A stretch of DNA of 64,000 nucleotides from Pseudomonadota bacterium (GTDB taxonomy: Bacteria; Pseudomonadota; Alphaproteobacteria; Micavibrionales; UBA2020), in the NCBI GenBank assembly GCA_021845905.1, contig JAJZVA010000006.1, positions 74,264-138,263 on the forward strand, in the 5' to 3' direction. The notes below the pieces were generated by a model. That model worked only from the letters and a program-made list of their open reading frames with translations, had not been told where the DNA came from and ran no database searches. The position numbers and the translations under genes were made by a program. The stretch's first letter is position 1. Every line of letters starts with the position of its first letter. Positions 28,000 to 51,326 of the stretch are shown one piece after another.

Positions 28000-28193
28000 A
28001 TGCCACCCGGAATTGCCAACCGGGACAGTATAGGAAAAAAACTGGAAAATCCGAGAAAAAACTTACTTGAGTTCTGGGTCAGGCACGGACGCTTGAGGCA
28101 TGTTCGGGAATTGGACGTGCTTCGGGGAAACAAAGGAGTTATGGTATTCACTAATCAATTGCGTAAAGTATCAAAAAATGATACCTTGCGCAC

Positions 28194-29815: not shown

Positions 29816-29948
29816 CGCGGTGCGAGGATCGGCCAGTAGACCGCCGTTCCGATGACGACGATGATCATGATGATAACAACACGAAAGGTCACCATCATGT
29901 TGGCGGGCAGGCCGAGCACACAACGGCTACTGCAAAAGAAAGGCCGTC

Positions 29949-35295: not shown

Positions 35296-35308
35296 GGAGG
35301 AAGTTGCG

Positions 35309-36580
35309 TTGAAGATCAGCATCGTCGTCCCGTCGCGCAACGGCGCGCCCTATCTGCGCCACTGCCTGGAGACCTGCCTCGCTTCGCCCGACCGCGATCT
35401 CGAGGTCGTCGTCAGCGACAACGACAGCGCCGACGACACGCGGGAAATGGTCGCGACCTTTTCCGACGGCCGGCTCCATTATTACAATACCGGCGAAAGC
35501 CTGAGCATGAGGCGGAACTTCGAGTTCGCGCTCGGCAAGGCCACGGGCGACTACATCATCTTTATCGGCGACGACGACGGCGTTTTGAAAGACGGCCTTG
35601 CTACTCTCCGCCGCGTTCTTGAGAAGTACCGCCCCGACGTCGTCAACTGGCGGCATATCACCTATAAATGGCCGCATGTCGATTATCCGGACAGTCCAAG
35701 CGTGCTCAAGTTCCGCCCGCAGGACTTTTTCGGCCCGCTCTACAAAAGGAACGCGCGGAAAATGCTGGACGCGTTCTTCGCGGGCGCGCGGACAAGCTAC
35801 CGCGACGCGGCGCACATCTACCACGGCGCCGTTTCCCGGCAACTGATCGAGAAAACGCGCGCCAGGACCGGAGATTATTTCATGGGGCAAAGCCCCGACA
35901 TCTATACGGGGTTCGCCAACCTGACGCAGATGGACGATTTCATCTGGATCAGAAACCCCGTCACCATCGGCGGCGAAAGCCCGAAAAGCAACGGCGCGGC
36001 GTGCCTGAAAGACGGAAAGCGGTCGTCGGCGCAAGCGCAAATCAATAAAAGCTTCATCGATCTCGCCGGGCAGGACGACGTCGTTCCCGAGACGGACTTA
36101 AGCCTGCGCTGCCTTGCGGCGCACGTCTACGCCAACCTGATCCGCGTGAACGAAACGATCCTGAACGGCGCGGGCGAAATAAACCACCGGAAATGGCGCG
36201 AAACCGTTCTGGCCGCCAACGACAGGCAGGAACCGGCGGTGCGGCAAAGGCAGAAAGACATCCTTCACGCGTTTTTCGCCAAGGCCGACCCGCTTTACGT
36301 CCCGCCGCCGCCGCAACCCGCCGCGGAGATCGCGCCGCAACCCGATGAAGGCGCGGCGACATCCGCGCCGCCTGCAAAAAACAAAGCGCAGCGGCCCGAC
36401 CTGCTCACCGTCGAGGACGCCCGCAGGTGGATCGACGCCGTGACGGAGGAGGGATACCTGCCCCAAAAGTTTCTGCCGCTGGCCTTGCCCGCGCAGGCCC
36501 TTCACGCTTTTCGCCTGCGCGGCAGCATGCGGAAGAACAGCTATCAATTGAGAAAAAGAAGAAAGGCAGAACAAAAATAA
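35309..36580 (+). CDS. family 2 glycosyltransferase
   Basis: AAGGAGG RBS then TTG; KISIVVPSRNGAPYLRHCLETCL...VVVSDNDSADDT...FIGDDDG. Confidence 0.75.
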   Translation: MKISIVVPSRNGAPYLRHCLETCLASPDRDLEVVVSDNDSADDTREMVATFSDGRLHYYNTGESLSMRRNFEFALGKATGDYIIFIGDDDGVLKDGLATLRRVLEKYRPDVVNWRHITYKWPHVDYPDSPSVLKFRPQDFFGPLYKRNARKMLDAFFAGARTSYRDAAHIYHGAVSRQLIEKTRARTGDYFMGQSPDIYTGFANLTQMDDFIWIRNPVTIGGESPKSNGAACLKDGKRSSAQAQINKSFIDLAGQDDVVPETDLSLRCLAAHVYANLIRVNETILNGAGEINHRKWRETVLAANDRQEPAVRQRQKDILHAFFAKADPLYVPPPPQPAAEIAPQPDEGAATSAPPAKNKAQRPDLLTVEDARRWIDAVTEEGYLPQKFLPLALPAQALHAFRLRGSMRKNSYQLRKRRKAEQK

Positions 36581-36780
36581 TGGCTGATATTGAGCAACAA
36601 ATGTACGACTGGCCAGATAGAGTGACCTTTACTTCTCGGTCGGCGACAGGCAAAAATTTTATGAGCAAGAACGGGTATAGCGACCCACATACTTTTAATC
36701 TCCCTTCGGAAGCCTACTACGTTAGAGAATTTTTAGATAACACCGAACGAGAAGATTTGACTTTTAGCTATGTTCCCTAA
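36580..36780 (+). CDS. small hypothetical protein (66 aa)
   Basis: ATG overlaps the GT2 stop (TAATG); MADIEQQMYDWPDRVTFTSR...; lower GC than surroundings. Confidence 0.45.
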   Translation: MADIEQQMYDWPDRVTFTSRSATGKNFMSKNGYSDPHTFNLPSEAYYVREFLDNTEREDLTFSYVP

Positions 36781-37130
36781 GAAGAAGAAAAACGGTAGGT
36801 CACTTGCGCCGCGCCGCGCGTGAATCTCTGCTCTATCGATGCGCTGCCCCTGCCCTGCGCTGGCGGCTTCGAGCGGCGGAGCGGCTCTTTCACCTGTAGC
36901 ACGTCCTGACGCAGGGCGACGGTTGCCAGTTCAGGCCGCCGCGCCACGGTCGGCGGCGCGAGAACATGGCGCAATAACTCGACGTTGCTTTTCTTCTGGA
37001 GTCTGCTCTCGTAGGCGGCCTCGGTGAACTTCGCCGCCACGGCGATTTGCAGGGTGATCTTATAGGGCGGGATGCCTTTAAGCCGCGTCGTCATACTCTG
37101 CACAGCGGTGATCAGCTCCCACGCCTTCAC
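36777..37130 (-). CDS. hypothetical protein, paralog of 4244..4684
   Basis: ATGA overlap with upstream small gene; shared blocks with the small-element protein. Confidence 0.6.
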   Translation of the reverse strand: MKAWELITAVQSMTTRLKGIPPYKITLQIAVAAKFTEAAYESRLQKKSNVELLRHVLAPPTVARRPELATVALRQDVLQVKEPLRRSKPPAQGRGSASIEQRFTRGAAQVTYRFSSS

Positions 37131-37270
37131 CGCGGCTTCCTGCTGCTCGCCGCGTCCATGGCGCGTAAGCCGGAGCCAAAGCCCTCAACGCGGACTTGCT
37201 CATCAAAAGCGCAAAGGGCGGACTCTGCCCACATGGCGCGGTTAAGGTTGGTTATTTTTGGAGAGGTCAT
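37127..37270 (-). CDS. small hypothetical protein (47 aa)
   Basis: MTSPKITNLNRAMWAESALCAFDEQ...; ATGA overlaps at both ends indicate translational coupling. Confidence 0.5.
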   Translation of the reverse strand: MTSPKITNLNRAMWAESALCAFDEQVRVEGFGSGLRAMDAASSRKPR

Positions 37271-37659
37271 TTGGACCTCCTTGCCGCCAGAGTGGCGGCG
37301 GCCTGCAAGAGGGCGGGCCGATCTTCGGTGATGCATTCGGTCCAGCGGGCGGCTTCGGCGTAAACCGACATGGGATGACCGGCAGTGAACGACAGGTCGC
37401 GTTCAACGGGCAACCCGAGCTTGCCGCGAAGGGAACGGAGTTCGTCGAGGCTGACGCAGCCGAGTTCGGGGAAACGAAGGCCGAGGTCGCAGAGACCGAA
37501 GGCGATGTCCGGCTCTTCCGGATCGATCTCAGAGAGAAGCCAGGTACAGCCGGCGTCCGGCGTAAAGAGTTTCACGACCGGCGGATGGTCCTGATCGCGA
37601 TTTCGTCCATTGGCGAGCAACTGCTCGAACTGCGCTTTGGTGAAAAGGTTCATGTTCAT
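37267..37659 (-). CDS. DUF2958 domain protein
   Basis: KLFTPDAGCTWLLSEIDPEEPDIAFGLCDLGLRFPELGCVSLDEL. Confidence 0.8.
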   Translation of the reverse strand: MNMNLFTKAQFEQLLANGRNRDQDHPPVVKLFTPDAGCTWLLSEIDPEEPDIAFGLCDLGLRFPELGCVSLDELRSLRGKLGLPVERDLSFTAGHPMSVYAEAARWTECITEDRPALLQAAATLAARRSK

Positions 37660-37713
37660 TCTCCTTGTGTTTGCTTACGCCCCGAAGGGACAGCGCAGCC
37701 AAGGCCGGGCGCG

Positions 37714-37790
37714 AGACGCAGCGTCACACAGGAAAATTGGGGGCGACCTTCAGGGGGAACCAAGGCTTCCTGTTGACGCGGGAAGCGTCT
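37714..37790. promoter_or_regulatory. conserved structured leader element, copy A
   Basis: AGACGC-A-GCGTCA-C-ACAGGAA...CCTTCAGGGGGAACC...TTCCTGT-TGACGC-GGGAA-GCGTCT; homologous copies at 46295 and 48655. Confidence 0.65.
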
Positions 37791-38186
37791 GCGGCTGGCA
37801 CGGTCGCTAGACACTGCCGTTCGGGGGACGGCAAGCACGGAGAGAAGTTGAACCGCCAAAGCGAAGACAGTGCTACACGCTATCGCACGATCAAAACGGC
37901 CTGAAATGCCTCCGCAGCTTTCGCCGTGGCGGCGCGCGACGCAGGAACATTGACCGAAGCTGCGGCGCGCCCGGCGGCGCCGGCGATGGCGGGGGCGGCG
38001 CTGGCGGCGGAGGAGGTTTCGCGAGAAGGCGCTCGATTGCTGCAATCGCCACGGCGATCCTGCGCTGCGCCAATGCCAGCATGCGCAGCATGGTTCCGGT
38101 CAAAAACCGGGAACCCCAATTGGAAAGCGCGGCAACCTTTCTGGTGAGGAAGCGGCTCGGCTTTGATTGCAGGAAGCGCGAACCGC

Positions 38187-39701
38187 TTAGCGTACACGTG
38201 GTGGCGGATCGGGTCCGTCCCTGCTTCGCCCATGTTCGTCCTTGAGCTGTTGTTCGAGGCGACGGCGCTCCTCGATCTCGGCGAGGAGTCTTACGGCGGC
38301 TTCGTGCTCGCGCAAATACCGGTCGCGTTCCTGCTCGTATTTGGCGTCGTGTTCGCGGCGCTGTTGTTCGTGGCGTTCGGTCAGCTCGGCGAGGTCACTT
38401 GCCCGTTCGGCCTTGAGGCGCGCGACCCGGTCAGCGCGTTCCTCTTTCTGTCGGCGCAAGAAGGCGTCCTTCGCGTCTTTGCGGTCGCGGGCTTTGTCGG
38501 CCATTAGTTGCGGATTGAGTCTTTCTTTGATCGCTTCGATGAAAGCGGCGATGCCGGTCTTTGCCCGATAGGTGTCCCGGAAAAACTGCTCCCTCGCCGC
38601 CTGTTGCAGGGCGTCGAAGTGACCGAGCTTCTCCCGGGCTTCCTCTGTGAGGACCCGCGCCGTCTGTTTGTATTCAGCCTCTTGCCGGAGGCGCATCTGG
38701 CGGCCTTCCTCCGCATGGCGCTCCTTCAACGCGGTTTCAAGGGCGGCGATTTCTTCCTTGGTGGGGTCTTGCTTGGCGGGGCTGTCCGGCGCGGGGCTTT
38801 CCGACGGTGACGGTGGCGGTTGGGGCGCGGGCTGTTGGTGAGCTTCAGGGCTCTCTGGCGGGGCTTTCTCCGGCTCCGGTTTCCGGGCGCGCTCGTCCTG
38901 AAGCGCCTTGGCCTGATCGATGGTCGGGATCACGTTCCGGTCGATGTCGGCCATGAATTCCCGCAGCTCTTTGGCGTTCACGCCTTTGATCTGCCGGGCG
39001 AGGCTATAGACCTGGTGATGTTCGTCCACGATCACGTAATCGCGGCGGTCGCCCCTGGCGAGGACGTAGCCCTTTTCTTCAAGGGCCGCCTTGAAAGCCT
39101 GTCCATTGTCGGATTGCTCATAGAGCGCGGTGATGGCGGCTTTGAATTCCCGCGGGTCGATGCCGGTGCGTTCGCCCTGCTGCCATTCGGCGTGGTTGAA
39201 TTCCTGCCGCGGGAACTCCGGCTGCTTCTCCCGATCGCGTTTGGCGTGCTTGCCGGGAACGTGCTCGTGCCCGAATTCCTTTTCGAGGGCCATGCTCGCC
39301 CGCTCGTGGGCAAGGTAGTTCCAACTGTCGGAGCGCAGCGTCATCGTGTCGATGTCGGTGCGCTGCCAGACGACGTGGATGTGCTCGCGCCCGTGCTTTT
39401 CATGGAGGACGACGGCGCGGGGCTGGTCTTCCAGGCCAAGCTCTTTTTCGAGGACTTCGACGGAGCGCTGCCACTGCTCGGGCGTCATGGCGTAGTCGCC
39501 GTGCGGGTCGATGTTGGCGTGATAGAGCCCCCGGCTCCCCAGAGTGCCTTCGGTCAGAAACTGCCAGTCGCGAAAGCTCTCCTTGAGGCTGTCGTGCGGG
39601 GACTGGATTTCGAGGATTTTGACGCGCTCATTGGTGTCGGTGCGGAGAAGATGGCGGGCGAGCTGGTCAGGGCTGCCGCGGCTGCTACCCTTGATGATCA
39701 T
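38187..39701 (-). CDS. relaxase/mobilization nuclease (MobA/VirD2 family)
   Basis: MIIKGSSRGSPDQLARHLL..., HGREHIHVVW His motif; long coiled-coil C-terminus. Confidence 0.85.
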   Translation of the reverse strand: MIIKGSSRGSPDQLARHLLRTDTNERVKILEIQSPHDSLKESFRDWQFLTEGTLGSRGLYHANIDPHGDYAMTPEQWQRSVEVLEKELGLEDQPRAVVLHEKHGREHIHVVWQRTDIDTMTLRSDSWNYLAHERASMALEKEFGHEHVPGKHAKRDREKQPEFPRQEFNHAEWQQGERTGIDPREFKAAITALYEQSDNGQAFKAALEEKGYVLARGDRRDYVIVDEHHQVYSLARQIKGVNAKELREFMADIDRNVIPTIDQAKALQDERARKPEPEKAPPESPEAHQQPAPQPPPSPSESPAPDSPAKQDPTKEEIAALETALKERHAEEGRQMRLRQEAEYKQTARVLTEEAREKLGHFDALQQAAREQFFRDTYRAKTGIAAFIEAIKERLNPQLMADKARDRKDAKDAFLRRQKEERADRVARLKAERASDLAELTERHEQQRREHDAKYEQERDRYLREHEAAVRLLAEIEERRRLEQQLKDEHGRSRDGPDPPPRVR

Positions 39702-40071
39702 CAGACCCCTCCCCGGCGGGTTTCATGCCGAGGGCGGTGAAGATGGCGTCGCGGATCATGCGATAGGCGGCCAGTGCCTCCTTGATTTCAGGGAGGGGGA
39801 CGGTTTCGCCCTGGTTCAGCCGGCGGGCGATCTGGTTGATGTTGTTGCCGATGCGCCCGCACTCGCCGAGGAGCTGCCGCAGGGTCCGATGGTCGGCGGT
39901 GGGCCGGCGCCTGGCGCGGGGGCCGGCATCGCCGAAGGCGGCGGCCCGCATGAAAGCGCCCGCGGCCATGCCGCTGCGGGAGGACAGGGTTTCAAGGGCG
40001 GCGCGCTCGTCTTTGGTCAGACGGACGGTGACAGTCTCGCCCCGCTGTCGTTTGTCGCTCCCGCTCGTCAT
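39685..40071 (-). CDS. mobC: MobC-family relaxosome accessory protein
   Basis: VRLTKDERAALETLSSRSGM... and GRIGNNINQIARRLN. Confidence 0.85.
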   Translation of the reverse strand: MTSGSDKRQRGETVTVRLTKDERAALETLSSRSGMAAGAFMRAAAFGDAGPRARRRPTADHRTLRQLLGECGRIGNNINQIARRLNQGETVPLPEIKEALAAYRMIRDAIFTALGMKPAGEGSDDHQG

Positions 40072-40180
40072 TCCACCCCTCTTGCGTGCGTCGGCACGCG
40101 GGTTTCAAGGGGCCTGTCTTGGCGGGGCCGGCGCGGTGGGACCGGCTCTCCCGGGCGGTTCTTGTCTGCCGCCCCGCAGC

Positions 40181-40572
40181 CAAGGGCGCAAAATGCCCCT
40201 GGTCGTCGCCGGGGCCGAAATCCCCGGTCATGGGTTCCATAGGGAGCACGAAGGCTCCCTTGGTCGGTGCCGGGGCCGAAACCCCGGTCAGAGTGCAGGG
40301 GCTCGAAGGCCGCCTGCTCGTGGGTGCCGGGACGCGAAAGTCCTGGCGAGTGGTCAAGGGCGCGATAGCCCTTGTCAGGGTCCAGGGCGGAACGCCCCGG
40401 CCATGGGTTCCTTAAGGGAGCACGGAGGCTCCCTTGGTCGGGTCCAGGGCGGAAGCCCGGTCTGGTCCAGGACGAAGTGCCTGGTCTGGGTCCACGGGGC
40501 GAAGCGCCCTGGTCCTGGGGATGCAACGGGGGTGGACAACCCCCTTGCCAAGCCGCGCGGTGTGACCGCGCA
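40181..40572. repeat. ladder of at least 10 short GC-rich hairpins punctuated by (T)GGTC, upstream of mobC
   Basis: e.g. CCGGGG-CCGAAAT-CCCCGG, AGGGAGC-ACGAAG-GCTCCCT, CAAGGGC-GCGATA-GCCCTTG, AAGGGAGC-ACGGAG-GCTCCCTT; ~39-nt direct repeat at 40229 and 40402. Confidence 0.7.
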
Positions 40573-41040
40573 TGGCTTGCACTTCACGATATCAGGATAT
40601 CACGAGTTTCCTTAATGTGGGATTAAGAAAGTCCGGTTTGCGGTGGGAGGCCTCGGCTAACGCCGATTCTCCCGATTCGATATGTAAATTATACCACGCA
40701 CGGCAGAGTTCGGGGACAATGCTTTGAGACGGAAGCTCATCGGGCTTCCGGCACGGCCCTATCGGGCCGTCCCGCAATCCTTGGCATAGGGCACATAGCA
40801 GGTTTGAAGCAGAGTGCCAGGCTTGAGACCTGTATGGCCGAGGTCGGAAATGACCTGTCTCCGATCGAGAACGGGGGCCACGTCGAGCCCGCCGCCGCCG
40901 GTTTCGAGAACCGACGGCGGCGTCATTGTTTTTTTCAGGAAAAACAATGAGTTATATGGATGACCTTTGAGAATTAACCGATAAATCAGTGGGTTATGAG
41001 ATAATCAAGAATAAGAGCAAAACCCGAGAATGGAGCGGGC

Positions 41041-41520
41041 ATGACGGTCTGGATGCCCGTTGGGGACGGGTTCATTGAAGCGGATGTAATCCGATGGACG
41101 GAGCCGGTGTATAGGGACCGGCTGCGTGGAAAACCTGTCCGGGTCGGTAAGCGGCTGGTGACGGCGGAGGTCCTGGAGGCGGACAAAGACGGCTGGACCC
41201 ATCTGCTGGTGCGTGGCGCCAAGGCGGTATCGGCGAACTTCGGCTGGAACCTCCGCGACGTTCTAGTCCCACCCAAAGACGAAGAAACAAAACGGAAACG
41301 GACGACCATTACCAGAGGCGGTGCCGAGCGGCTGCTGTGGAGCGATGAGAGCGCCCGCGCCCTCGTCGCCAGCCGGTTCCTGAACGAACGAGACACGGCC
41401 CCGCCAGTGTCCACCGCCAAGCTCCGTCGTCCATCCCGACCCGCCCGTCATTCCTCTTCCGGGAAACACAAGAGGCGCATTCGCGATACCGGATGGAAAC
41501 CGCCTCGCCCGCGATTTTGA
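41041..41520 (+). CDS. hypothetical protein, paralog of 4688..5020
   Basis: GGAG RBS; conserved N-terminal and RLLWS blocks shared with the small element; basic C-terminal tail. Confidence 0.6.
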   Translation: MTVWMPVGDGFIEADVIRWTEPVYRDRLRGKPVRVGKRLVTAEVLEADKDGWTHLLVRGAKAVSANFGWNLRDVLVPPKDEETKRKRTTITRGGAERLLWSDESARALVASRFLNERDTAPPVSTAKLRRPSRPARHSSSGKHKRRIRDTGWKPPRPRF

Positions 41521-41711
41521 AGGGGGCAGGAAAAGCTTCTCGCGAAAGGGGGCGCTACCTGAAAAGGCCGAGACGGCAACGCTGGCTCGGTGAGGCGCGG
41601 AGCCGCCGAATAGCACCCGGCCCGCCACTGGCCAGGCCTCGGGTTCGCCCGGAACAAATCCACACTCGTTCCACCGTCAACACTGGCCGTGTCTCACTGC
41701 CCTAAATTCGT

Positions 41712-44700
41712 TCACGTCCTGACCTCTTCCGGCCCGGGAATGTCGGCGGCGACGAGTTGCTTTAGGTCCTCTATTCCTACGTCATGCGCATCCGCCAGCC
41801 TCGTCGCCTGTCGTTCCATGCAGACTTCGAAGAGATTGCGCACCGCGCGACCGTTGCCGAACCCCTTGCCACGCCCTGTATAGAGCGCATGGATAGTTTT
41901 CTTGAGCTTCGGGGGCGCCTTTCCGGTCAGCTCCATGCCGTTCCGGGCACAAAGCCCCCGGAAAATCTCCATCAAGTCTGACGGTTCATAGTCGGGGAAA
42001 TCGATGAACGTCTTGAAGCGCGATTTGAGGCCGGGGTTGCTGTCCACGAAACCCTGCATTTCTTCGCGATAGCCCGCCGCGATGACCACGAGACGGTCCC
42101 GGTAATCCTCCATGAATTTGAGCAGCGCCGTAACGGCCTCGATCCCGAAATCGTTGTTCGAGTCTGACGAAATCAGGCTGTAGGCTTCGTCGATAAACAG
42201 CACGCCGTCCAGGGCCTGCTCCACGGCCTCCGCAACCTTGGGCGCGGTCTGGCCGATATATTCCGCCACCAGATCGCCCCGGCTTACCTCGATACAATGG
42301 CCTTTTTTCAGGACCCCAAGATCGCGATAAATCCGGCCGATGATGCGCGCGACCGTCGTCTTGCCCGTGCCGGGGTTGCCCGTAAAAACCAGATGGTTCG
42401 ACCTCTCGGGCACCGGCAAGCCTGCCTTCCGCCGTGCCTGGTTGACTTTCTCCAGATTGGCGACGGTTTCGACCTGCTTTTTGACGGGCGCGAGACCGGT
42501 CAGTCCGCGCAGGTCCGCGAAGGGGTCTTGCTTCGTCTCGACCGGAGCGGGCGCTGCCGGTTGCTTTTCTCGGGGCGGCTTCGGCGGAGGCGATGACGGT
42601 TGCGGTGGCGGTTGCGGCGGTTTCTGCTGCCCTTTGCTGAAATAAGGATTCTCGTCGTACTGAAGCGGCGGCGCCTTACCCATGTTGTACGGATACATAT
42701 GCTTGAGATGATCGTAGGCACGATCGAGATTCCAGTAGTCGATGGGTCTGAGATACTCCGGCAAACCGCGCGGGTTGAGCAGGATTGCCACGTCCCGCCC
42801 GAGATTGAGAATCTCGTCGGGCATCAGCAGCGGGCGTGCCATCTCGCCGAAGTTGGTGCTTTCCCCGGATGTGGCGCCGCCCTTGGTCTCGCCGGAGGAC
42901 ATGGATGTCGCCACGGTGCGCACGGTCGCCTTGCCGAGGCTCTCGCTGAGATATTTGGCGGTGTCGAGTTCGTTGACGAAACAGAACCACTTGAAGGCGC
43001 AATTGCTGAGGATCGTTCCGCTGGAATCGCCGTAGTGATCCTTGAGCTGGTCGAGCCCCTGCACGATCAGCGTGAAGTCGAGCCCGTAGCCGCTCATCAG
43101 CGCGATATCGCGCGGAATGTCGTCGATGCGCCCGATGGAGCCGAACTCGTCTATCAGGAACATGCAGCGACGGCGCGGCACGCTTGTGGCCTTGTGGCTT
43201 TTCATGCCCTGCATGGCGGAGGCGATGACCAGCCGGAGCCAGGTGGCGTGGGTTTGAATCCGGTCGTGCGGGATGACGAGATAGACGGTGGTCGCTTCCT
43301 CCCGGAGCTTCTTCATCGAAAACGAAGACGAGGCCGTCGATTGCTTGATCTGCGGGTCCGACAGGAACTTGGTGTTCTCTGCCAGGTTCGACATGATCCC
43401 GCTGTAGGTTTCCGGCGCGAGGTCGATGTACTGGCTGACCATCTCGCTGACCGCGCCGTGGTAAGCGGTTGAAGCCGTCATCTTGACCAGAATCTTGAGA
43501 AACTCGGCCCGGCTCATGGTCACGATCTGACGGGCGCGGGCGAGGGTCTTTTGTTCGCCCGGCGCGTCGGCGATCCAGAGAAAGACGCCCGCGAGCACGT
43601 TGGCCGCGCTCCCCTGCCAGAACGACTCCTTGCCTGTCGCGGGCGGGCAGATGATTGCCGCGAGCGATTGGGCGAAGGCGACGGCGTTGGGATCGTTGCG
43701 GTCGAGCGCGTCGAGCGGGTTGAAAGTCGCCCTGGCGAAGCCAAGGCTCCGGTAACGGCTCTCCATTTCTCCCCACGGGTTGACGATATGGACCGTCTGC
43801 TTATGCCGGTTGCGGCGCGTGCGCGCCGTGATCGCCGCGTTCTCGCCTTTGGGGTCGATGACCAGCATCGAGCCTGTGTAATTCAACAAGGTCGGCACGA
43901 TAACGCGGGTGCCCTTGCCCGCCCGCGTGCGGGCCACGATCAGCGTATGTGTTTCCGGCGATGACGTGACGGGGGCGCCGGGAGCATCGGCAGGGATGTC
44001 AGGTCTGCTGCTTTTACCGAAGTTGACGCCCTGGAACATATTCTCCCCGCGACGCTCCACGATCCGATGTTCGGCCCAGTCGGCGGTGCCGTAGTTGTCG
44101 CTCAGCGGCGGAAGGGAATCGTCCGGCTCTTCTTCACGTCTCAACATCAGCCACCCAAAAAACCCGATCACGAACGCGCCGCCACCGTAAACCAGAACGT
44201 AAGCGCTTGCGGTGATCCAGGGATTCGGCTTGACCGAAGACCCCGCGTTCGCGGAAGAAACGGGGTTCTGGCCCCGTCTTTGCGCCTCACTCTCCCAATT
44301 GACCTGCGCCGCCACGTATTCCGGCGCAAAGTAGCGCCCGAGCACGTCACGCATAAAATCCGTGTTGGCGCTGTAGGCGTATTCCTTCTCGAAAAACTGC
44401 GGCCGGATGCAGCTCTTGCCGGAACAATTCCCGTCGTTGAATTTGAGGCCATAGGGTTTCTCGCCGAAGGCGCGGGAGTATTCCCGAAACTTGGCGGCGG
44501 CGCGGGGCGGCATCGACCTGATGTCCAGGGCGCCGGTCCAAACCTGAATCGCGTTGCGGAGGATTTCGAAAGCTGCGGCCTGCCGTGCGGCCGTATCGAT
44601 TTCGTTCGAACCCCGGACGTCCCTGAACACTTGCGCGACCGTGGGAGCATGGGCGATCCATCCGTCGCTCATGGCTGCGGCGCGGCAGGTGGCCGGCACA

Positions 44701-44747
44701 GGAGCAAGCGCCAGAGCGAAAGACAGACAGAGCAGACGAAAGCGCAT
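41712..44747 (-). CDS. VirD4/TraG-type coupling protein fused to a C-terminal CbbX/SpoVK-like AAA+ module
   Basis: Signal-like MRFRLLCLSFALALAPVPATC (start 44747; track start 44855), TM segment, IVARTRAGKGTRVIVPTLL Walker A, Pro-rich linker, then VFTGNPGTGKTTVARIIGRIY...GVLFIDEAYSL. Confidence 0.8.
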   Translation of the reverse strand: MRFRLLCLSFALALAPVPATCRAAAMSDGWIAHAPTVAQVFRDVRGSNEIDTAARQAAAFEILRNAIQVWTGALDIRSMPPRAAAKFREYSRAFGEKPYGLKFNDGNCSGKSCIRPQFFEKEYAYSANTDFMRDVLGRYFAPEYVAAQVNWESEAQRRGQNPVSSANAGSSVKPNPWITASAYVLVYGGGAFVIGFFGWLMLRREEEPDDSLPPLSDNYGTADWAEHRIVERRGENMFQGVNFGKSSRPDIPADAPGAPVTSSPETHTLIVARTRAGKGTRVIVPTLLNYTGSMLVIDPKGENAAITARTRRNRHKQTVHIVNPWGEMESRYRSLGFARATFNPLDALDRNDPNAVAFAQSLAAIICPPATGKESFWQGSAANVLAGVFLWIADAPGEQKTLARARQIVTMSRAEFLKILVKMTASTAYHGAVSEMVSQYIDLAPETYSGIMSNLAENTKFLSDPQIKQSTASSSFSMKKLREEATTVYLVIPHDRIQTHATWLRLVIASAMQGMKSHKATSVPRRRCMFLIDEFGSIGRIDDIPRDIALMSGYGLDFTLIVQGLDQLKDHYGDSSGTILSNCAFKWFCFVNELDTAKYLSESLGKATVRTVATSMSSGETKGGATSGESTNFGEMARPLLMPDEILNLGRDVAILLNPRGLPEYLRPIDYWNLDRAYDHLKHMYPYNMGKAPPLQYDENPYFSKGQQKPPQPPPQPSSPPPKPPREKQPAAPAPVETKQDPFADLRGLTGLAPVKKQVETVANLEKVNQARRKAGLPVPERSNHLVFTGNPGTGKTTVARIIGRIYRDLGVLKKGHCIEVSRGDLVAEYIGQTAPKVAEAVEQALDGVLFIDEAYSLISSDSNNDFGIEAVTALLKFMEDYRDRLVVIAAGYREEMQGFVDSNPGLKSRFKTFIDFPDYEPSDLMEIFRGLCARNGMELTGKAPPKLKKTIHALYTGRGKGFGNGRAVRNLFEVCMERQATRLADAHDVGIEDLKQLVAADIPGPEEVRT

Positions 44748-45173
44748 CTGAATCAGTCCCCGGGGCATCGCCACAGGCGGCTCGATGGCAGACAAGGCCG
44801 AAAGCTCTGTAGTCCGTCCGACGCCAGAAGCGATAGTGCTGCGGAAGTATTGCATACGCCAGTCCCTGAACCTCTGAAAAAAGCGCGTTGGAGACCTGCC
44901 GCTTTGATTGTGTCCGCGCGGTAATGATTCAAATCCATGATCTCCCCCCCTTTTCAGGGAGCCCCGATTCCGGACTTCGATGGTGCAGCGTTAGCACCGG
45001 CGCGCCTTTGGGCGCTGCAAGCTTGTTGCCAAGCTCCTTCTCTTCGTTGCGGTCCACTCATGTTGCGCATGCACAGCATGGTGGATGCAGCTCAAGGCGG
45101 CCGTCGCTCTCCACGGCTGCGTGAAGTCCGCGATCGGCGCGGGCAGAAGAAAAGGAGAGACACCATGAGAGTC

Positions 45174-45356
45174 ATCACCGCAGCAGAACTGGCCAACAAA
45201 ACGAATTTCCAACTGAGCGCCCTTTACGCGAGGCTCAAGGAGGAACTGTCACGCACAGAACCGGGCAGCTACGAGCACGAAGTTTTATCCATCTCGCTCG
45301 AAAACGTCCGCCGCGCATACACGACGACTCCCAAGTTCAAGCCCCCGAGGATGTAA
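45174..45356 (+). CDS. small hypothetical protein (60 aa)
   Basis: AAGGAGAG RBS; MRVITAAELANKTNFQLSALYARLKEEL... Confidence 0.45.
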   Translation: MTAAELANKTNFQLSALYARLKEELSRTEPGSYEHEVLSISLENVRRAYTTTPKFKPPRM

Positions 45357-45443
45357 TTCCCGGCCTCCAAAACAAGGCGCCCCGACCGGCAATCGCCGGT
45401 CGGAGTTTCGGCGGAGCAGGTGGCACGGGCGAACCCCGCTCGC

Positions 45444-45950
45444 TCACGCGCAACGATAAACAAGCCGCGTTCCGGCAATGGTCGTTTCGCTGTAGTCCAT
45501 GCCGAGGTCACGGGCGATGGCGTCATAGTCGAGATAATTGCGGATGGGTTCGGGGATTTCTCCGAACAGTCCTTCATCGACAAATTGCTCGGCGAGTTCG
45601 CGCAGGCTGTCTATTTGATAAAGATCAACGTCGAAGTCGTCCGGATCGCCGGAAGCCAGGTCGAAGCGGTATCCGCATTCGCCGACGGCGATGATGACTT
45701 TCTGCTTCTGATTATCGTCCCACGCGTCGCAGGCGTCCAGAAATTGCGGGAAGTTGCCTTGGTTGACGCCGAGCGCCTCGAACAGCTTCGCGTCGATGCT
45801 TTCGCCGTCGATGAATTGCAGTTCAAATCCCTCCACGGGGCAGCCAGCGGAATTGCGTAGCTTCGCGGCTTTCTCCGCGTATTCGGACGCGGTTCGGAAG
45901 TAGAAGCCCGTGGCGCTGATGTCGTAAGGTTGTGCGAATAATTCGGTCAT
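45444..45950 (-). CDS. ardA: ArdA-family antirestriction protein
   Basis: Acidic 168-aa protein; family recognised from overall pattern incl. MTELFAQPYDISATGFYF N-terminus. Confidence 0.75.
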   Translation of the reverse strand: MTELFAQPYDISATGFYFRTASEYAEKAAKLRNSAGCPVEGFELQFIDGESIDAKLFEALGVNQGNFPQFLDACDAWDDNQKQKVIIAVGECGYRFDLASGDPDDFDVDLYQIDSLRELAEQFVDEGLFGEIPEPIRNYLDYDAIARDLGMDYSETTIAGTRLVYRCA

Positions 45951-45960
45951 GGCTGCCCCC

Positions 45961-46230
45961 TCACGCTGCCAGTAGGGTTTCGGCTTCGAGCATCACGTCG
46001 ATGTAATCGACGGGACCGCCGGCGGCGGTGATGATCGAACGCGGCAGGGCGTGCGCGTAAAGCCCGCTTGGCGCGATGGGAAGCGGTGCGTCGGTGGGAT
46101 AGATGCTCCGCACCTGAAGGTGCGCGAAGTCTTGTCCGGTGACGCTGGCCGGAAGCCAGTCGGGCTCATAGGTGATTTCCAGCAAGTGGCCCTTCCAGTC
46201 CATGCGGTGTATTTCGGTCGTGCGTTTCAT
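45961..46230 (-). CDS. hypothetical protein
   Basis: 89-aa ORF directly upstream of ardA and downstream of leader element copy B. Confidence 0.5.
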   Translation of the reverse strand: MKRTTEIHRMDWKGHLLEITYEPDWLPASVTGQDFAHLQVRSIYPTDAPLPIAPSGLYAHALPRSIITAAGGPVDYIDVMLEAETLLAA

Positions 46231-46294
46231 CGGCGTTTTCCTTTTTTCTGTTTGAACGATCCCCTTCGGGATTGAGTCCCCGCCTCACGCGCAA

Positions 46295-46396
46295 GGGCGC
46301 GGTGTCACACAAGAAAATCGGGGGGAACCTTCAGGGGGAACCGACCCCTGAACGAAGTTCGGGGCCTGTTTTCTTGTTGACGCCAGAAAGCGCCCG
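46295..46396. promoter_or_regulatory. conserved structured leader element, copy B
   Basis: GGGCGC-GGTGTCA-C-ACAAGAAAA...CCTTCAGGGGGAACC...TTTTCTTGT-TGACGCC...GCGCCC; compensatory changes relative to copies A and C. Confidence 0.65.
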
Positions 46397-46512
46397 CGCG
46401 TGATAAAAGGGGCCAGACCGACACTGAAGGGGCGTTCAAAACCTGAGAGAAAAAGGAAAACGCCGGTCGCGTGAACGACCGGCGTCATGGACGGCGATGC
46501 GTCCGTTGATGA

Positions 46513-48330
46513 TTACCGGAGGATGTCCGGCAACCAGCCCGTGCCGGCGATTTCACGCTCAGCAAGTGCGGCCAGCTCGGCCTTCTTGAGCTTGTCCCAT
46601 GCGGGCGCAACCGGCTGCTTGCGCGCGTCTGTCAGGGCATCGAGGATTTGCGGTTTGCTGATGCGGCTGAAATATCCCTCGGCCGTCGGGGTGAACCACG
46701 CCTTCATGTCGAGCTTGACCGCGACGGAGAGTTTACTGGCATGGTCCAGTCTCGGGCAGTCCGGACGATCCGTCTTGCGCTGCACGGCATTGACCATGCA
46801 GGCCGCGCAGAATGTCAGGAGATCGAGTAACACGGACTGATCCTGCTCCAGACACCAGTTCCAGAGATCATCCGGAGTACCGGGGATACGTTGGCCCCAG
46901 GATTCACGGGCTCGTTCAAGACGCTGGAAAGCAGTCGAGCCTTCGACAAGATTCAGCGGCTGCGTTTTGCCGGAAAGTTCAAGGGCCGTAGCGTGTCCTT
47001 GATCGAATGTGTCCAGCACAAGGGCGTACACGATCGTGGCAAGACCTTTGTCCGGTGCGTCCAGCAAGGTTGCGGCAAGCGCTGCCGACCTATGGGCGGT
47101 CAGGCTCTCGACCAGCGCCGCCGACAATCCGGGAGTCTCCGCTTCAACGGCTGCGGTATCCGCATCGCCGGGAACGCCAGAGACTTTTGCCTTTTTGGAC
47201 TGTTTCGGCATGTCCTCCGGCTTCACAAAACCGCGCTCGATCTTCACCTTGCCGGCGTGATCGAGGGATACCACGGTGCCCGCGATCGCAAGCTGTTCCG
47301 GCGTCCAGACGCCGTCGCGGTCTTCGATGTCGGCGATGAGCTTCTCCAGCTCGTCGAGACGTTCCGGCGCTTCGCCCGCGTCGGATGCGTACCACGCGTC
47401 ATTCAGGGCGGTGTATTCCGCCTGAAGGCTGTCGAACCGTTGCTGTTCGTCTTCGGTCAGGGGAACGGGCTCGGGATAGATACGCCTGTAAGCGGAACTT
47501 TGCGCGTATCCGAACTCGGGCATGACTTCGATCCATTTCCAGCCCTCGGCGCGGACCGGCTTGGCCTTCTTCTCAAGCTTCTCCGTCACAAGGCTGTCCA
47601 GCAGGGCGGCGTCTTCGATATAGACGCCGTTGTCGTCGTCGCTGAACAGGTCGCGCTTGAGATTGCCACCGGCCTTTTCGTACCCGTTCAGGGTCACGAA
47701 TTTCACGCGCTTGTCGGTTGCGGCGATGTCGTTCTCCGTCAGGGCGTCGCGGATGTCGCGGGCATCGTTGCGTTCGGGGTCGTAATCCGCCAGCACGCGT
47801 TCCTGCGCTTCGTGGTCGTCGGTCACGGCGAAGGCCATGACGCATTCCAGCGTCAGGTCGCCGTCCCGGTACGCCTTGATGATGCTCGGGCTGACACGGG
47901 CCAGTTTCAGGAGCTTCTGGACGTGGGCCTCGCTGCATCCGAAACGGGCGGCAATATCCGCAGCCGGCATACCGTCATCGGTCAGGGAACGGAACGCCTC
48001 GAACTGGTCGGCGGGGTGCATGTCTTCCCGCATGACGTTCTCGGCCAGGCTCAATTCCGTTGCGTTGTCGGCCGCCGTGATGCGGCATGGCACCGGAAAT
48101 GTCGCCTGTAGATCACCGGTCTTGGCGAGTTGCTGCAAGGCTTTCAGGCGTCTGCCGCCGGCGACGACGGCGAACTTCTTGCCGTCCTTGCGGACGACGA
48201 GATTTTGCTGAAGGCCGTGGGCTTTGATGCTGGCGGCCAGCGCGTCGATGCCGTCCTTGTTCCGGATTTTCCGAACGTTGCCGGACCAGACGGTCAGCTT
48301 GTTGAGCGGTACATTTATAATGTCGGTCAT
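46513..48330 (-). CDS. ParB/Srx N-terminal domain protein
   Basis: VPLNKLTVWSGNVRKIRNKDGIDALAASIKAHGLQQNLVV ParB-type N-domain; 605 aa. Confidence 0.75.
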   Translation of the reverse strand: MTDIINVPLNKLTVWSGNVRKIRNKDGIDALAASIKAHGLQQNLVVRKDGKKFAVVAGGRRLKALQQLAKTGDLQATFPVPCRITAADNATELSLAENVMREDMHPADQFEAFRSLTDDGMPAADIAARFGCSEAHVQKLLKLARVSPSIIKAYRDGDLTLECVMAFAVTDDHEAQERVLADYDPERNDARDIRDALTENDIAATDKRVKFVTLNGYEKAGGNLKRDLFSDDDNGVYIEDAALLDSLVTEKLEKKAKPVRAEGWKWIEVMPEFGYAQSSAYRRIYPEPVPLTEDEQQRFDSLQAEYTALNDAWYASDAGEAPERLDELEKLIADIEDRDGVWTPEQLAIAGTVVSLDHAGKVKIERGFVKPEDMPKQSKKAKVSGVPGDADTAAVEAETPGLSAALVESLTAHRSAALAATLLDAPDKGLATIVYALVLDTFDQGHATALELSGKTQPLNLVEGSTAFQRLERARESWGQRIPGTPDDLWNWCLEQDQSVLLDLLTFCAACMVNAVQRKTDRPDCPRLDHASKLSVAVKLDMKAWFTPTAEGYFSRISKPQILDALTDARKQPVAPAWDKLKKAELAALAEREIAGTGWLPDILR

Positions 48331-48365
48331 GATGGTTCTCCCTTCTGAAAAGAAGAAGAGCGCCG

Positions 48366-48596
48366 TTAAGCGCTCTTCCCTTCCGTTTCCTCGGGTTGCA
48401 CAGCGGCTTTTGCTTTGGGCGGAAATGCCGCGTAGCGTTTGCCGGCGATCAAGAGGGTGAAGCCGTTGCCCTTCTTGTGGGCGAAGCCTGCACCTGCGGG
48501 TTTGCCGGATTTTTCGCCGTTGGCTGCGTTCTCGAAGATGTAGAAGTCGGGAACCTGTTTGGTTTTGGCCGTTTGGTTTTCAGTGGTCGTTGTCAT
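48366..48596 (-). CDS. hypothetical protein
   Basis: GGAG RBS then ATG at 48596: MTTTTENQTAKTKQVPDFYIF...; first gene after leader element copy C. Confidence 0.5.
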   Translation of the reverse strand: MTTTTENQTAKTKQVPDFYIFENAANGEKSGKPAGAGFAHKKGNGFTLLIAGKRYAAFPPKAKAAVQPEETEGKSA

Positions 48597-48654
48597 TTTA
48601 GTCTCCTTCGTTTGCATTACCCTTTCGGGCGATGCCTCCGATCAGCCAGCAGCG

Positions 48655-48730
48655 GATGCAGCGTCACACAGGAAAATTGGGGGAGACCTTTAGGGGGAAC
48701 CGAGGCTTCCTGTTGACGCGGGAAGCGGCC
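48655..48730. promoter_or_regulatory. conserved structured leader element, copy C
   Basis: GCGTCA-C-ACAGGAA...CCTTTAGGGGGAACC...TTCCTGT-TGACGC; near-identical to copy A. Confidence 0.65.
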
Positions 48731-49244
48731 GCGCATGGCAGGGGGCTCGAACATGCACGAAGGGTGGATGCAAATAGCGGAAGGAGATGATGTGCTGACA
48801 ACGCCGGAGAACCACGGCTCGCAAACAGGAACGCGTCATCATTCCTGAGAAGAACGGACGCGCGGAAAAGACCGTTTGATCACCCGTTCGCTCCACCACG
48901 GCAGATTAGGTGAACCGATCCCGTAGATCGCATCCGTCAACGTTGCGGCCTCCGGCAAGCAGCCGCGCAACCTCGTTTGGATACGGAAGGGAATGTCGAT
49001 AACGGGTGTGCTCACACTTCCGAAAGGAAAGCTCGGCGGCGCCCCCACAGCGCAACGCCCGAGCTGCTGATTGTCAAATGAGGAAAATGTCGAACCCGGG
49101 AATCGTCCGATCCGTGTTCGACGCGGCACGCGCAACGGTCCCGTAGCTTTATCGTGCCTGTCGCCGTTAGGCCGTTCGGCCCGGCTCCGGAGCGCCGTCC
49201 AGCGCTCCCGACAACTTGAAGATTCTCAAGCAGGGAAAGGAAGA

Positions 49245-49558
49245 TGGTGCGGGCGGCCGGACTTGAACCGGCACAGGCCTTTCGGCCCTACGGATTTTCA
49301 TACCACTACGGCTTTCGCCGCGTTCGCCGCTGCGCCTCTCGGCACAGGACGCTTTGTGGTCTGGACTATCCCTTCACCATAGCCGTTGCTTTAGGTGCTG
49401 CCCGTCTAGTCTCTACACCTTCCCGTTTCCGGGCTTGGCTCGGGATTGCCATGTGAAAGGTTTCCCCGACTTTGAGCAGTTCTGCATCGCGGGTTTCCCC
49501 GCGCGCACTCAATTTTCTGGTTTAAGTCCGTTGCGTCTACCAATTTCGCCACGCCCGC
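49245..49558 (-). tRNA. tRNA-Leu(UAA) interrupted by a group I intron (exons 49558-49524 and 49298-49245)
   Basis: 5' exon GCGGGCG-TG-GCGAAATTGGTAGACGC-A-ACGGA-CTT; 3' exon AAAA-TCCGT-AGGGCCGAAAGGCCTGT-GCCGGTTCAAGTCCGGC-CGCCCGC-A-CCA. Confidence 0.85.
49299..49523 (-). ncRNA. group I intron (225 nt, no ORF) between U34 and A35
   Basis: Shares TCGGGGAAACCTTTCACATGGCAATCCCGAGCCAAGCCC and GGGAAGGTGTAGAGACTAGACGGGCAGC with the 6715-6945 intron; GAAGGGATAGTCCAG; ends ...GGTATG. Confidence 0.8.
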
Positions 49559-49746
49559 GTGGTACATCCACCTATAGCCGCAACCCACTTAACAACCAAG
49601 AAAAATCGAGCATTTCTGCGGATTCCGGCATTACGGAAAGGCAGGGTAGCAGCCTTCGCCGCCTGAGGTTTTGGCTAGCATAACACAATAGGAGTCGTAC
49701 CTGCTCGGCGCGCAGACGCCGATGCGGCACGCCTGTACGCGTCCGC

Positions 49747-51069
49747 CTATCTTGCCTTTGGGGGCGGAGTCCGCGGTCGCGGCTTGCGCACGTTTATGGC
49801 TCCGGCATCGATGCTGTCTTTGATGTGAGAGGCGTAATACTTCTCGATCATCTCGACACTGGTACGGCAGTTTTTCGCGATCTGATAGATGTCGGCGCCT
49901 TCCATGAGCCTCAAGCTGATATAGGTATGACGGAGGCTATAGGCGGTTCGCTCGTTGCCCTCCCGGTCTGTCTTGAGATCGAGTTCGTTCAAAATGTCTC
50001 TAAACAATTGCCTGTGCGTTTTCGGGAACACCAGGTCCGTCGGTTTCGGAAGGACGGTTGTTGTGTCCGGCTCCTCGTTCGATGCGCCTGACGAAGAAGA
50101 TGATCGAAGGCTTTCGCTCATCTTTGCCGGACGCCGGCGCTTCTCCAAGCGCCTGAAGGGCTCTACTGCGCCAGGCATGCTTTTGCAGTAGCCGACACCA
50201 CGCTTGCCGCGAACGGTGATGACAAGAATGTCGTCTTTGCCGTTTTTGGCGCTTCCGGACTCGATTTCCACGTCCCGAAACTGAAGCCGCAGCGCTTCGT
50301 CGGGCCGCAGTCCGGTGTTCGCCATGAACAGCACAAAGTCATGGAGTTGCTCGCACGACCACTTCCAGCGCGGCTTTGGAGGATTCTTGGCGCGCGTTCC
50401 CGTTGCCGTATAGAGCTGCCTGTACTCTTCCGCAGAGAACCAGGCGCGATGGGATACCTTGGATGAGGATTGGTATGGCGCGGATAGATTGGGAAGATGG
50501 TCAAGCCACCCCTGCCGATTTGCAGTTTTCAGTATCTGACGGAGGCAGACTATTTCCTGATGGAGGGCGCTGCGCGATGGAGGCTTTTGCCTTTCAAAGC
50601 CCTTGGACGAACCGTTCTTCTTGATATGCGCCGCAAGCTTGTGTTGGTCCGTACGGGACATTCCCGTCTTCATGCGGTGTATGCGGTAGTCCTGAACCTT
50701 GCCTGCCGTTATATCGCTGAGAACCAAATTGCCGAAGAACGGATTCAGATGGTTGTTGATCCTGTCCTTGTGGCAGGCGACATATACCTCGCTTCTCTGC
50801 CCTTCGGTAATGGTCTCGAATTCATCGATGAAGCGTTCGGCTGCTTCCCGGAAGGTCTTCCCTTCCTTCAACTCGCCGGCTCGATATTTTCCCAGGAGGC
50901 TTAGGTACCAGTCTCGGGCTACATCCTTTGCGCGGGCGAGGCTTTCTTCTCTCGTCGTGGTGCGCCGCTGGCGTCCGGCCACTGAACACGAGCACTGCCA
51001 ATGCGGACTGTTCTTCCGCATGTAGAGCTGGACGCGATTGTCCATAAGGGAGTGGCGGGTGGTGTCCAT
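49747..51069 (-). CDS. tyrosine recombinase/integrase
   Basis: Homologous over its length to 7005..8207 (FMANTGLRPDEA, AYSLRHTYISLRLMEGADIYQIAKNCRTSVEMIEKYY) with a Ser-rich insertion. Confidence 0.9.
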   Translation of the reverse strand: MDTTRHSLMDNRVQLYMRKNSPHWQCSCSVAGRQRRTTTREESLARAKDVARDWYLSLLGKYRAGELKEGKTFREAAERFIDEFETITEGQRSEVYVACHKDRINNHLNPFFGNLVLSDITAGKVQDYRIHRMKTGMSRTDQHKLAAHIKKNGSSKGFERQKPPSRSALHQEIVCLRQILKTANRQGWLDHLPNLSAPYQSSSKVSHRAWFSAEEYRQLYTATGTRAKNPPKPRWKWSCEQLHDFVLFMANTGLRPDEALRLQFRDVEIESGSAKNGKDDILVITVRGKRGVGYCKSMPGAVEPFRRLEKRRRPAKMSESLRSSSSSGASNEEPDTTTVLPKPTDLVFPKTHRQLFRDILNELDLKTDREGNERTAYSLRHTYISLRLMEGADIYQIAKNCRTSVEMIEKYYASHIKDSIDAGAINVRKPRPRTPPPKAR

Positions 51070-51092
51070 CGAAAGGCCTGTAGACGCTTGTT

Positions 51093-51110
51093 TGTGCTAG
51101 ATATGTGCTA
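51093..51110 (+). repeat. arm-type repeats TGTGCTA x2 (large element, integrase end)
   Basis: tgtgcta at 51093-51099 and 51104-51110. Confidence 0.55.
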
Positions 51111-51163
51111 AGTATCTATAGCGCCAAATGCCTGAATATACAAGGAAATATTATTTTACATAG

Positions 51164-51204
51164 GATTTTAAGTCGTGTGCGTCTACCAGTTCCGCCACAG
51201 GGCC
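51164..51204 (-). tRNA. 5' part of the resident tRNA-Leu(UAA), ending in att core copy 3
   Basis: Minus strand GGCCCTG-TG-GCGGAACTGGTAGACGC-A-CACGA-CTTAAAA-TC, then CTATGTAAAATAAT (no tRNA 3' half). Confidence 0.85.
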
Positions 51205-51326
51205 CTGCTTTATAAACCGTCTCCAGAAATTACGTGAACACCCAAAGATATTCAAGGTTTTAACGATATTTTCACCTTTCCTGCATATTATGGATACATA
51301 ACATTTGCACTTCAACACGGGAGAAA

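Follow-up and report, generated by a model that had tools for sequence, protein, structure and literature searches.

An integrase and intron-bearing tRNA-Leu(UAA) module on two putative tandem elements within a split host tRNA gene of an alphaproteobacterium

In classical genomic islands (Islander type, PMC4383910; ICEMh1 and ICEPmu1, PMC6861422) a tyrosine integrase, direct repeats in a tRNA gene and tandem accretion are found together, and the tRNA is restored with a copy of its displaced part. A different outcome, tRNA-dependent lysogeny, has been shown experimentally for actinobacteriophages (Guerrero-Bustamante and Hatfull 2024, PMC10865867), and substitution of a host tRNA has similarly been noted for prophage-like regions of Sinorhizobium. 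Here we describe a locus that resembles both, located in a stretch of 64,000 nucleotides (nt) from a Pseudomonadota bacterium of the alphaproteobacterial order Micavibrionales (assembly GCA_021845905.1, contig JAJZVA010000006.1, positions 74,264 to 138,263), hereafter the window. The two halves of a host tRNA-Leu(UAA) gene are separated in it by a large element, B, and a small one, A, each of which carries an integrase gene (intB, intA) followed by a complete tRNA-Leu(UAA) gene that contains a group I intron (tRNA-B, tRNA-A). We consider it probable that these elements disrupt the host gene and replace it with their own intron-bearing tRNA.

The elements share with the actinobacteriophages an integrase (a tyrosine integrase in the phages, one of putative tyrosine-recombinase type here), a bacterial attachment site (attB) in a host tRNA gene, a core of about 10 bp in the phages, and a tRNA that is not rebuilt. 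They differ in being non-phage mobilizable islands, known from their sequence and without a match in phage collections, in having hosts mainly among Alphaproteobacteria and Acidobacteriota, and in carrying the tRNA gene directly after the integrase gene, with a group I intron at the crossover site. The resemblance to classical islands extends to the integrase, the repeats and the tandem arrangement, but not to the restoration of the tRNA. In ICEMh1 the repeat, GATTCAAAATC, is 11 bp long and lies within the tRNA-Leu(CAA) anticodon loop (PMC6861422); it is nearly the same as the core of those relatives of our elements that target tRNA-Leu(CAA), and the likeness noted here concerns the core.

The intron resembles that of cyanobacterial and plastid tRNA-Leu(UAA) (subgroup IC3; 'Leu.3Ug' in Williams 2020, bioRxiv 10.1101/2020.01.27.920355) in its site (CUU/AAAA), the U.G wobble of P1, the omega G, the conserved core, the short length and the lack of an open reading frame (ORF), but it lies on mobile elements, beside an integrase that targets the intron-less allele. 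The same work lists such introns by phylum, in many phyla, and leaves a link to islands unmentioned. As summarised in PMC4390854, Randau and Soll (2008) proposed for archaea that tRNA genes are shielded against integrating elements by having introns or by being split. The likeness to that proposal is that the attachment sequence is lost when an intron interrupts the anticodon loop; the difference is that it concerns host genes of archaea with protein-spliced introns, whereas here the gene is the mobile element's own and the intron a predicted bacterial self-splicing ribozyme. A full-text search of an incomplete literature collection returned no paper linking a tRNA group I intron to an integrase or island. 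The parts are thus known singly, and what appears to be new is their combination, a cross-phylum module of integrase and intron-bearing tRNA, on non-phage islands, with the intron at the crossover.

The split tRNA-Leu(UAA) gene

The features on which the interpretation of the locus depends are the following, all on the minus strand of the window.

51287..51315, promoter-like site TTGAAG-17-CATAAT upstream of the native tRNA 5' half (predicted, consensus scan only)
51164..51204, 5' half of the native intron-less tRNA-Leu(UAA), from acceptor GGCCCTG to anticodon-loop position 40; junction J1 (left, element B)
8352..51163, large element B, ~42.8 kb, bounded by the core copies at J1 and J2
49747..51069, intB, tyrosine-recombinase-type integrase of element B (ORF, 440 amino acids)
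49245..49558, tRNA-Leu(UAA) copy B (ARAGORN with introns allowed; RF00028; covariation)
8341..8351, middle copy of the core GACTTAAAATC; junction J2 between elements B and A
3861..8340, small element A, ~4.5 kb, with intA, tRNA-A, an AbiEii toxin gene and small ORFs
7005..8207, intA, integrase of element A (ORF, 400 amino acids)
6663..6979, tRNA-Leu(UAA) copy A (ARAGORN with introns; sub-threshold RF00028; reading of the sequence)
3806..3860, 3' half of the native tRNA-Leu(UAA): core, TCGTG, variable arm, T arm, CAGGGCC, A, CCA; junction J3 (right)

We interpret this arrangement as two tandem integrative elements inserted site-specifically into the anticodon loop of a native, intron-less tRNA-Leu(UAA) gene. 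Read along the tRNA strand, the order is host 5' half, intB, tRNA-B, ca. 41 kb of cargo, core, intA, tRNA-A, ca. 2.8 kb of cargo and host 3' half. The 11-bp core, which spans tRNA positions 30-40, is found three times (51174-51164, 8351-8341 and 3860-3850), so that each element is bounded by direct repeats at a specific site, as is characteristic of tyrosine recombinases. The native halves lie 47 kb apart, and joined at the core they give an 85-nt tRNA-Leu(UAA) that ARAGORN accepts. Beyond the core at J1 the sequence is AT-rich and is not tRNA, and neither junction rebuilds the native tRNA. The locus has therefore an attB in a host tRNA, a short common core and no rebuilding at the junctions, and both elements encode a tRNA with the anticodon of the disrupted gene; the displaced part that a classical tRNA-restoring island carries to regenerate the gene is missing, which is why the host gene remains split. 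The acceptor stems of both carried copies are self-consistent and differ from the host's.

The uninterrupted form of the site is found in related genomes. Five genomes of the same genus have the native gene intact and intron-less at ca. 100 nt from uvrC, which is also a neighbour in the window, and the 5' half in the window agrees in every base with the corresponding part of the intact tRNA at this uvrC-adjacent site; a sixth genome (G009) has a different intact intron-less tRNA-Leu(UAA) adjoining uvrC. Between the intact gene of one of these genomes (G008) and the rebuilt native gene the only difference is a compensatory pair in the T stem, and the sequence downstream of the G008 gene matches window positions 3758-3860. 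Another genome of the genus (G006) has a B-type integrase at the uvrC-adjacent site.

These observations bear on the possibility of a classical island that lies beside an ordinary host tRNA, with the intron-bearing tRNA as the host gene and the half-tRNA as an unrelated relic. Integrases do often adjoin tRNA genes, and some members of this integrase family follow an intact tRNA-Met or tRNA-Leu(CAA). But in the window the integrase lies upstream of the 5' end of the tRNA and not at its 3' end, the native halves are 47 kb apart while sister species have the intact gene at the site, both carried acceptor stems differ from the host's, and the same carried tRNA occurs in other phyla. We regard a classical island as very improbable, and rejected it as contradicted by the comparison with the empty sites of the genus.

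Some further observations concern the ends of the elements. Just inside the right end of element B (8355-8420, minus strand) motifs containing TAAAATC are clustered, and TAAAATCCTAT is present both there and at the left junction (51140-51165); these motifs may be arm-type binding sites of the integrase or relics of older junctions. Just downstream of the 3' end of the native tRNA (3700-3800, minus strand) there are two AATTAAAATTCAGC repeats, followed by a T-arm-like fragment, CGGTCGATTCCGGTCAGC. The G+C content is low between 2000 and 9000 (ca. 0.47-0.56 per 1-kb window, against ca. 0.6 for most of the rest), and this region with its T-arm-like fragment may be what remains of a further element.

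Among metagenome contigs from four runs that were compared with positions 42000-60000, none showed a joint bearing on excision. Contigs from a mangrove run, ca. 96-97% identical, cover the element and end at 51184, with the host flank little covered, which gives a weak hint of a B-like element in other hosts. Joints at 49274/49521 in metagenome contigs were considered as a spliced DNA form and rejected, their source being intron-less tRNA-Leu genes of other organisms.

The integrase and tRNA module

The intB gene starts 94 nt downstream of the truncated host tRNA 5' half. Its product matches a SAM-like N-terminal domain of Pfam above the cut-off (26.8 against 22.6 bits) and PF00589 (Phage_integrase) just below it (23.5 against 27.1 bits), and the motifs TGLRPDE, SLRHTY and KYYASH are seen in the integrase alignment; none of the NCBIfam models names a family for it. 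The closest named record with an intB-type integrase, at 96% identity, is a soil metagenome-assembled genome labelled Stellaceae. Between intB and tRNA-B there is a spacer of 188 nt (49746-49559), and tRNA-B consists of a 5' exon of 35 nt (49558-49524), a group I intron of 225 nt (49523-49299, with the omega G at 49299) and a 3' exon of 54 nt (49298-49245) in which CCA is encoded. The first-pass annotation of this DNA had described exactly this succession, with the intron at U34/A35, and its coordinates are correct to the base. A consensus promoter scan of the 188-nt spacer found none; by eye, a weak TTGGTT-17-TATAGG can be seen in it. The promoter predicted at 51287..51315, if active, would read through the half-tRNA into intB.

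The second module (8207-6663) lies 42.6 kb from the first, and intA is 57% identical to intB. Copy A consists of a 5' exon (6979-6946), a group I intron of 231 nt (6945-6715) and a 3' exon (6714-6663), and directly upstream of it a promoter-like TTGAAG-N16-TATAAT is predicted. ARAGORN with introns places the intron after position 35 in copy B and after position 34 in copy A; in both copies the exons read ..GGACTT / AAAATCCGT.. at the splice sites, with the intron between U34 and A35. The group I model RF00028 matches copy B at 49533-49342 with 54.2 bits, above the gathering score of 50, and copy A with 45.9 bits, below it. At default settings ARAGORN reports zero tRNAs in the whole window, so that intron-bearing tRNA genes of this kind are easily overlooked.

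The two copies differ from each other largely by changes that keep the structure. The compensatory differences that had been claimed between them are all present, in the acceptor stem (GCGGGCG/CGCCCGC in B, GCAGGCG/CGCCTGC in A), in the T stem (GCCGG/CCGGC in B, GGGGG/CCCCC in A) and in an intron hairpin (CCCG-GAAA-CGGG in B, CCCC-TGAACA-GGGG in A). Over the consensus structure 59 pairs are identical, 8 differ by compensatory changes and 4 by one-sided changes with the pairing kept, while 4 pairs are broken, all within an indel-rich part of P2. The earlier claim that both tRNAs and both introns are under selection for structure is likewise borne out by an alignment of 70 distinct homologous intron-tRNAs, for which RNAalifold predicted the tRNA cloverleaf together with intron helices: 37 of the 75 pairs show compensatory double changes (maximum after shuffling, 28), and standard pairs fill 98.2% of the cells, against 89.6% when shuffled (maximum 90.3%) and only 32-44% when the partners are slid by 1-3 columns.

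The U-1.G wobble of P1 (columns 35:51) is invariant in the 70 sequences, and so is the omega G, which in the alignment directly precedes the 3' splice site (AAAAT). With its insertion site, the U.G wobble, the omega G, the RF00028 match of copy B and the covarying core, the intron has the characters of a group I tRNA-Leu(UAA) intron of the IC3, Leu.3Ug type, and it is presumably self-splicing. No RNA sequencing run was listed as containing this DNA. It contains no ORF, and therefore would not home by itself.

The association of integrase and tRNA was surveyed in the 80 best integrase homologues (56-96% identity) among the species genomes of GTDB, where 544 relatives of intB were confirmed. The 80 belong to Alphaproteobacteria, Acidobacteriota, Binatia, Planctomycetota and Nitrospinota; hosts of the family are mainly Alphaproteobacteria and Acidobacteriota, with single loci in several other phyla. 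Cultured strains with the module include Parerythrobacter lacustris RS5-5 (L060), Asticcacaulis sp. 201 (L070) and Tunturibacter empetritectus M8US30 (L107). In 72 of the 80, the integrase lies 88-180 nt downstream of the 5' half of a tRNA-Leu cut in the anticodon loop at CTTAAAA or CTCAAAA, and at these 72 loci the half-tRNA is followed by unrelated DNA, with no restoration of the tRNA. Directly downstream of the integrase, an intron-bearing tRNA-Leu(UAA) was found at no fewer than 44 of the 80 loci, an intron-less tRNA-Leu(CAA) at 14 to 16, a tRNA-Leu(UAG) at two and an intron-less tRNA-Leu(UAA) at one; ARAGORN with introns labels 11 of the intron-tRNAs as Ser or Phe, with the intron misplaced by 1-2 bases. 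Nine relatives from Acidobacteriota are dealt with below, and the remaining loci end too early to show a downstream tRNA. The anticodons of target and carried tRNA agree (UAA with intron-bearing UAA, CAA with CAA), with one exception (L064). The acceptor GCGGGCG/CGCCCGC of the carried tRNA is constant across phyla, and the host remnants vary.

A member of the family is found elsewhere in the same assembly (C8:153041-175500), where a 22-kb island splits the native tRNA-Leu(CAA) in the anticodon loop. The first gene of this island encodes an integrase of the family, and after it comes a complete intron-less tRNA-Leu(CAA); the assembly has no other tRNA-Leu(CAA). On a further contig (C25:126747-177867) three integrases of the family lie in one orientation downstream of an intact tRNA-Met, an arrangement that resembles a classical tandem array beside a tRNA gene.

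The distances among integrases and among intron-tRNAs are correlated (Mantel r 0.49, a value that none of 2000 permutations reached), and in 39 of 55 cases the closest relative by integrase also ranks among the three closest by intron-tRNA. On a FastTree phylogeny of the integrases the type of carried tRNA requires 23 changes, against ca. 35 after shuffling. Clean clades by carried-tRNA type were thus rejected; either the target and carried types switched repeatedly, or the tree is poorly resolved.

Taken from the intron side, within the order of the host, 16 of 29 intron-tRNA loci have an integrase directly upstream and 13 have none within 1.5 kb upstream. The proposal that the linkage is an inherited module stands, although from the intron side the linkage is not universal. 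On these comparisons the pair of integrase and tRNA is inherited as a unit, in several phyla. Several of the unlinked intron-tRNAs share the 55-90 nt spacer of the module. In a genome of the same genus (G004; loci L032 and L126) an A-like intron-bearing tRNA-Leu(UAA) is found 138 nt from uvrC, without integrase or half-tRNA, and it retains ca. 38 nt of the promoter region of the module upstream; this looks like an element tRNA that was fixed after the rest of the element was lost. The shared spacer, together with this copy, suggests that some unlinked intron-tRNAs are remnants after loss of the integrase, although the direction is unproven.

Proposed replacement of the host tRNA and possible role of the intron

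The explanation that we favour as a whole is that the integrase would cross over within the core GACTTAAAATC in the host anticodon loop, that integration would destroy an essential single-copy tRNA-Leu(UAA), and that the element would supply the substitute. The carried tRNA, after self-splicing, would take over the decoding of UUA and let integrants survive, and loss of the element by imprecise deletion would be impossible, since the carried tRNA would be needed. The linkage of integrase and tRNA would follow, because elements that split the host tRNA-Leu(UAA) must bring a substitute. The tRNA-Leu genes of the assembly (98.8% complete, 26 contigs) are of the types CAA, CAG, GAG and UAG, and the only tRNA-Leu(UAA) genes are the two intron-bearing copies of the elements; as there is no other in the assembly, we infer that the carried tRNA is needed for the survival of integrants.

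A different purpose can be imagined for the carried tRNA, namely that it serves mainly as a reserve tRNA-Leu(UAA) out of reach of anticodon nucleases or of other immunity directed at tRNAs, with complementation as a secondary effect. Phage tRNAs have been proposed to act against tRNA-cleaving defences (discussion of PMC10865867), and the element is rich in defence and anti-restriction genes. We consider this quite improbable, given that the mature carried loop is the same as the host's (CUUAAAA), which offers no escape from a loop-specific nuclease, and that the strict match of target and carried anticodons is what complementation predicts.

The position of the intron suggests a role of its own. 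It is located between the fifth and sixth bases of the 11-bp core, and the reconstructed core of the attachment site of element B (attP), GGACTTAAAATCC, has 13 nt that recur unchanged in the anticodon arm of tRNA-B once this is spliced. If it lacked the intron, the carried gene would offer the integrase a second site, ca. 1.7 kb from attP; by splitting the recombination core, the intron would make it no substrate for its own or related integrases. That the intron prevents use of the carried tRNA gene for attachment has, in our view, about an even chance of being true.

The opposite possibility is that the intron is a passive passenger: the ancestral element captured an intron-bearing tRNA-Leu(UAA), its precise loss is rare, its splicing is costless, and protection comes from other differences or is unneeded. 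The CAA- and UAG-type relatives do carry intron-less tRNAs, in cyanobacteria and plastids both the intron family and the site that it occupies are ancient (Williams 2020), and the 13 unlinked loci of the host's order have the intron-tRNA without an integrase. On the other hand, the sample holds no UAA-targeting element with an intron-less tRNA-Leu(UAA), and the carried tRNAs differ in how far they match the target. Once its intron is removed in silico, the carried UAA tRNA has the same bases as the target from position 30 to 38 at 45 of 46 loci, against only 1 of 15 for the intron-less carried CAA tRNA, where the usual difference is C32 for T32. In two tandem arrays of Sphingomonadales metagenome-assembled genomes (L061:6740-6790 and L062:3840-3890) integration of the next element of the same family has truncated, within its loop, the carried tRNA-Leu(CAA), which has no intron; in our window the second element used the junction core, and both carried intron-bearing genes are intact. 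The only carried tRNA-Leu(CAA) with an intron (L102) belongs to an element with an integrase of the same family and tRNA-Leu(CAA) as target, and its core again equals the target's; the intron, of 232 nt, is of group I, has C and not U before the 5' splice site, corresponds to the 'Leu.3Cg' type of Williams 2020, and lies ca. 2.3 kb downstream of the integrase. The contrast in core match, the two arrays and this last case together argue for a protective role, and the passenger explanation seems to us somewhat unlikely, although a good part of the probability remains with it.

Several points weigh against replacement or against protection. The assembly is in 26 contigs, so that a further tRNA-Leu(UAA) could lie in a gap. 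In nine relatives from Acidobacteriota that likewise fail to restore the host gene, no carried tRNA is seen within a distance of 4 kb. The strategy does not require an intron, since the CAA-type relatives manage without one, and at one locus of this intron-less type (L082) the core does equal the target at positions 30-38, while four share the target's loop. The sequence GACTTAAAA may simply be conserved in all tRNA-Leu(UAA) genes, perhaps for translational reasons, which would inflate the figure of 45 of 46. Nor are the counts independent, given that the loci share ancestry. In cyanobacteria, too, this intron is old and occupies the same position, which may for this reason reflect ancestry and not selection by the integrase.

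It can also be proposed, more tentatively and with slightly less than an even chance, that the intron is an immunity device of a mobile element that targets only intron-less alleles. The module would then be a recombinase-based homing system and a vehicle that spreads the tRNA-Leu(UAA) intron to non-cyanobacterial phyla, and decay of the integrase would leave 'native-looking' intron genes, such as that of G004.

Cargo of the elements and implications

Element B carries a dense defence cargo (10159-29815 of the window), beside genes for mobilization and maintenance identified with Pfam and PADLOC (relaxase, NikA/MobC, a VirD4-type coupling protein fused to an AAA domain, and a ParB-like protein), the anti-restriction genes ArdA and ArdC, and an IS110 transposase. 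Element A has little cargo beyond its integrase, tRNA and AbiEii toxin gene. The defence systems are located as follows.

10159-11060, M78 peptidase and helix-turn-helix pair, element B
11971-13820, BilC/BilD-like JAB and E1 proteins, element B
14093-15910 (GajB) and 15897-17768 (GajA), Gabija, element B
17807-27575, Hma helicase-methylase-ATPase (HmaC, HmaB, HmaA), element B
28194-29815, AbiEi/AbiEii, element B
5650-6660, plus strand, AbiEii toxin gene, element A

No VirB4-type ATPase or other part of a type IV secretion system was found among the scanned subset of ORFs of element B. With an integrase, a relaxase and a coupling protein, and no mating-pair apparatus in the scanned ORFs, element B has the make-up of an integrative mobilizable element. 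The integrase found no match in phage records and viral contigs, and an origin as a temperate phage was rejected on this ground and on that of the cargo of mobilization and defence genes.

Element B also contains three copies of a repeat of 45-89 nt, 87-93% identical (37715-37803, 46298-46342 and 48655-48743), near the relaxase, ArdA and ParB-like genes; one of them is abutted by a match to the Rfam 'osmY RNA' (46228-46298; 25.7 bits, below the cut-off). The repeat may be a shared regulatory or transfer-related site.

If the proposed role of the intron, which we find plausible, is true, a bacterial tRNA group I intron would have a concrete selective function as a shield against site-specific recombination, and the idea of Randau and Soll would become testable in bacteria. 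The disruption and replacement of a host tRNA would reach beyond actinobacteriophages to widespread mobilizable islands that carry defence genes, and the module could account for the patchy occurrence of the tRNA-Leu(UAA) intron in bacteria other than cyanobacteria. There are also consequences for annotation, since default tRNA finders miss or mislabel such genes, and island finders that expect a restored tRNA mis-map the ends of the elements.

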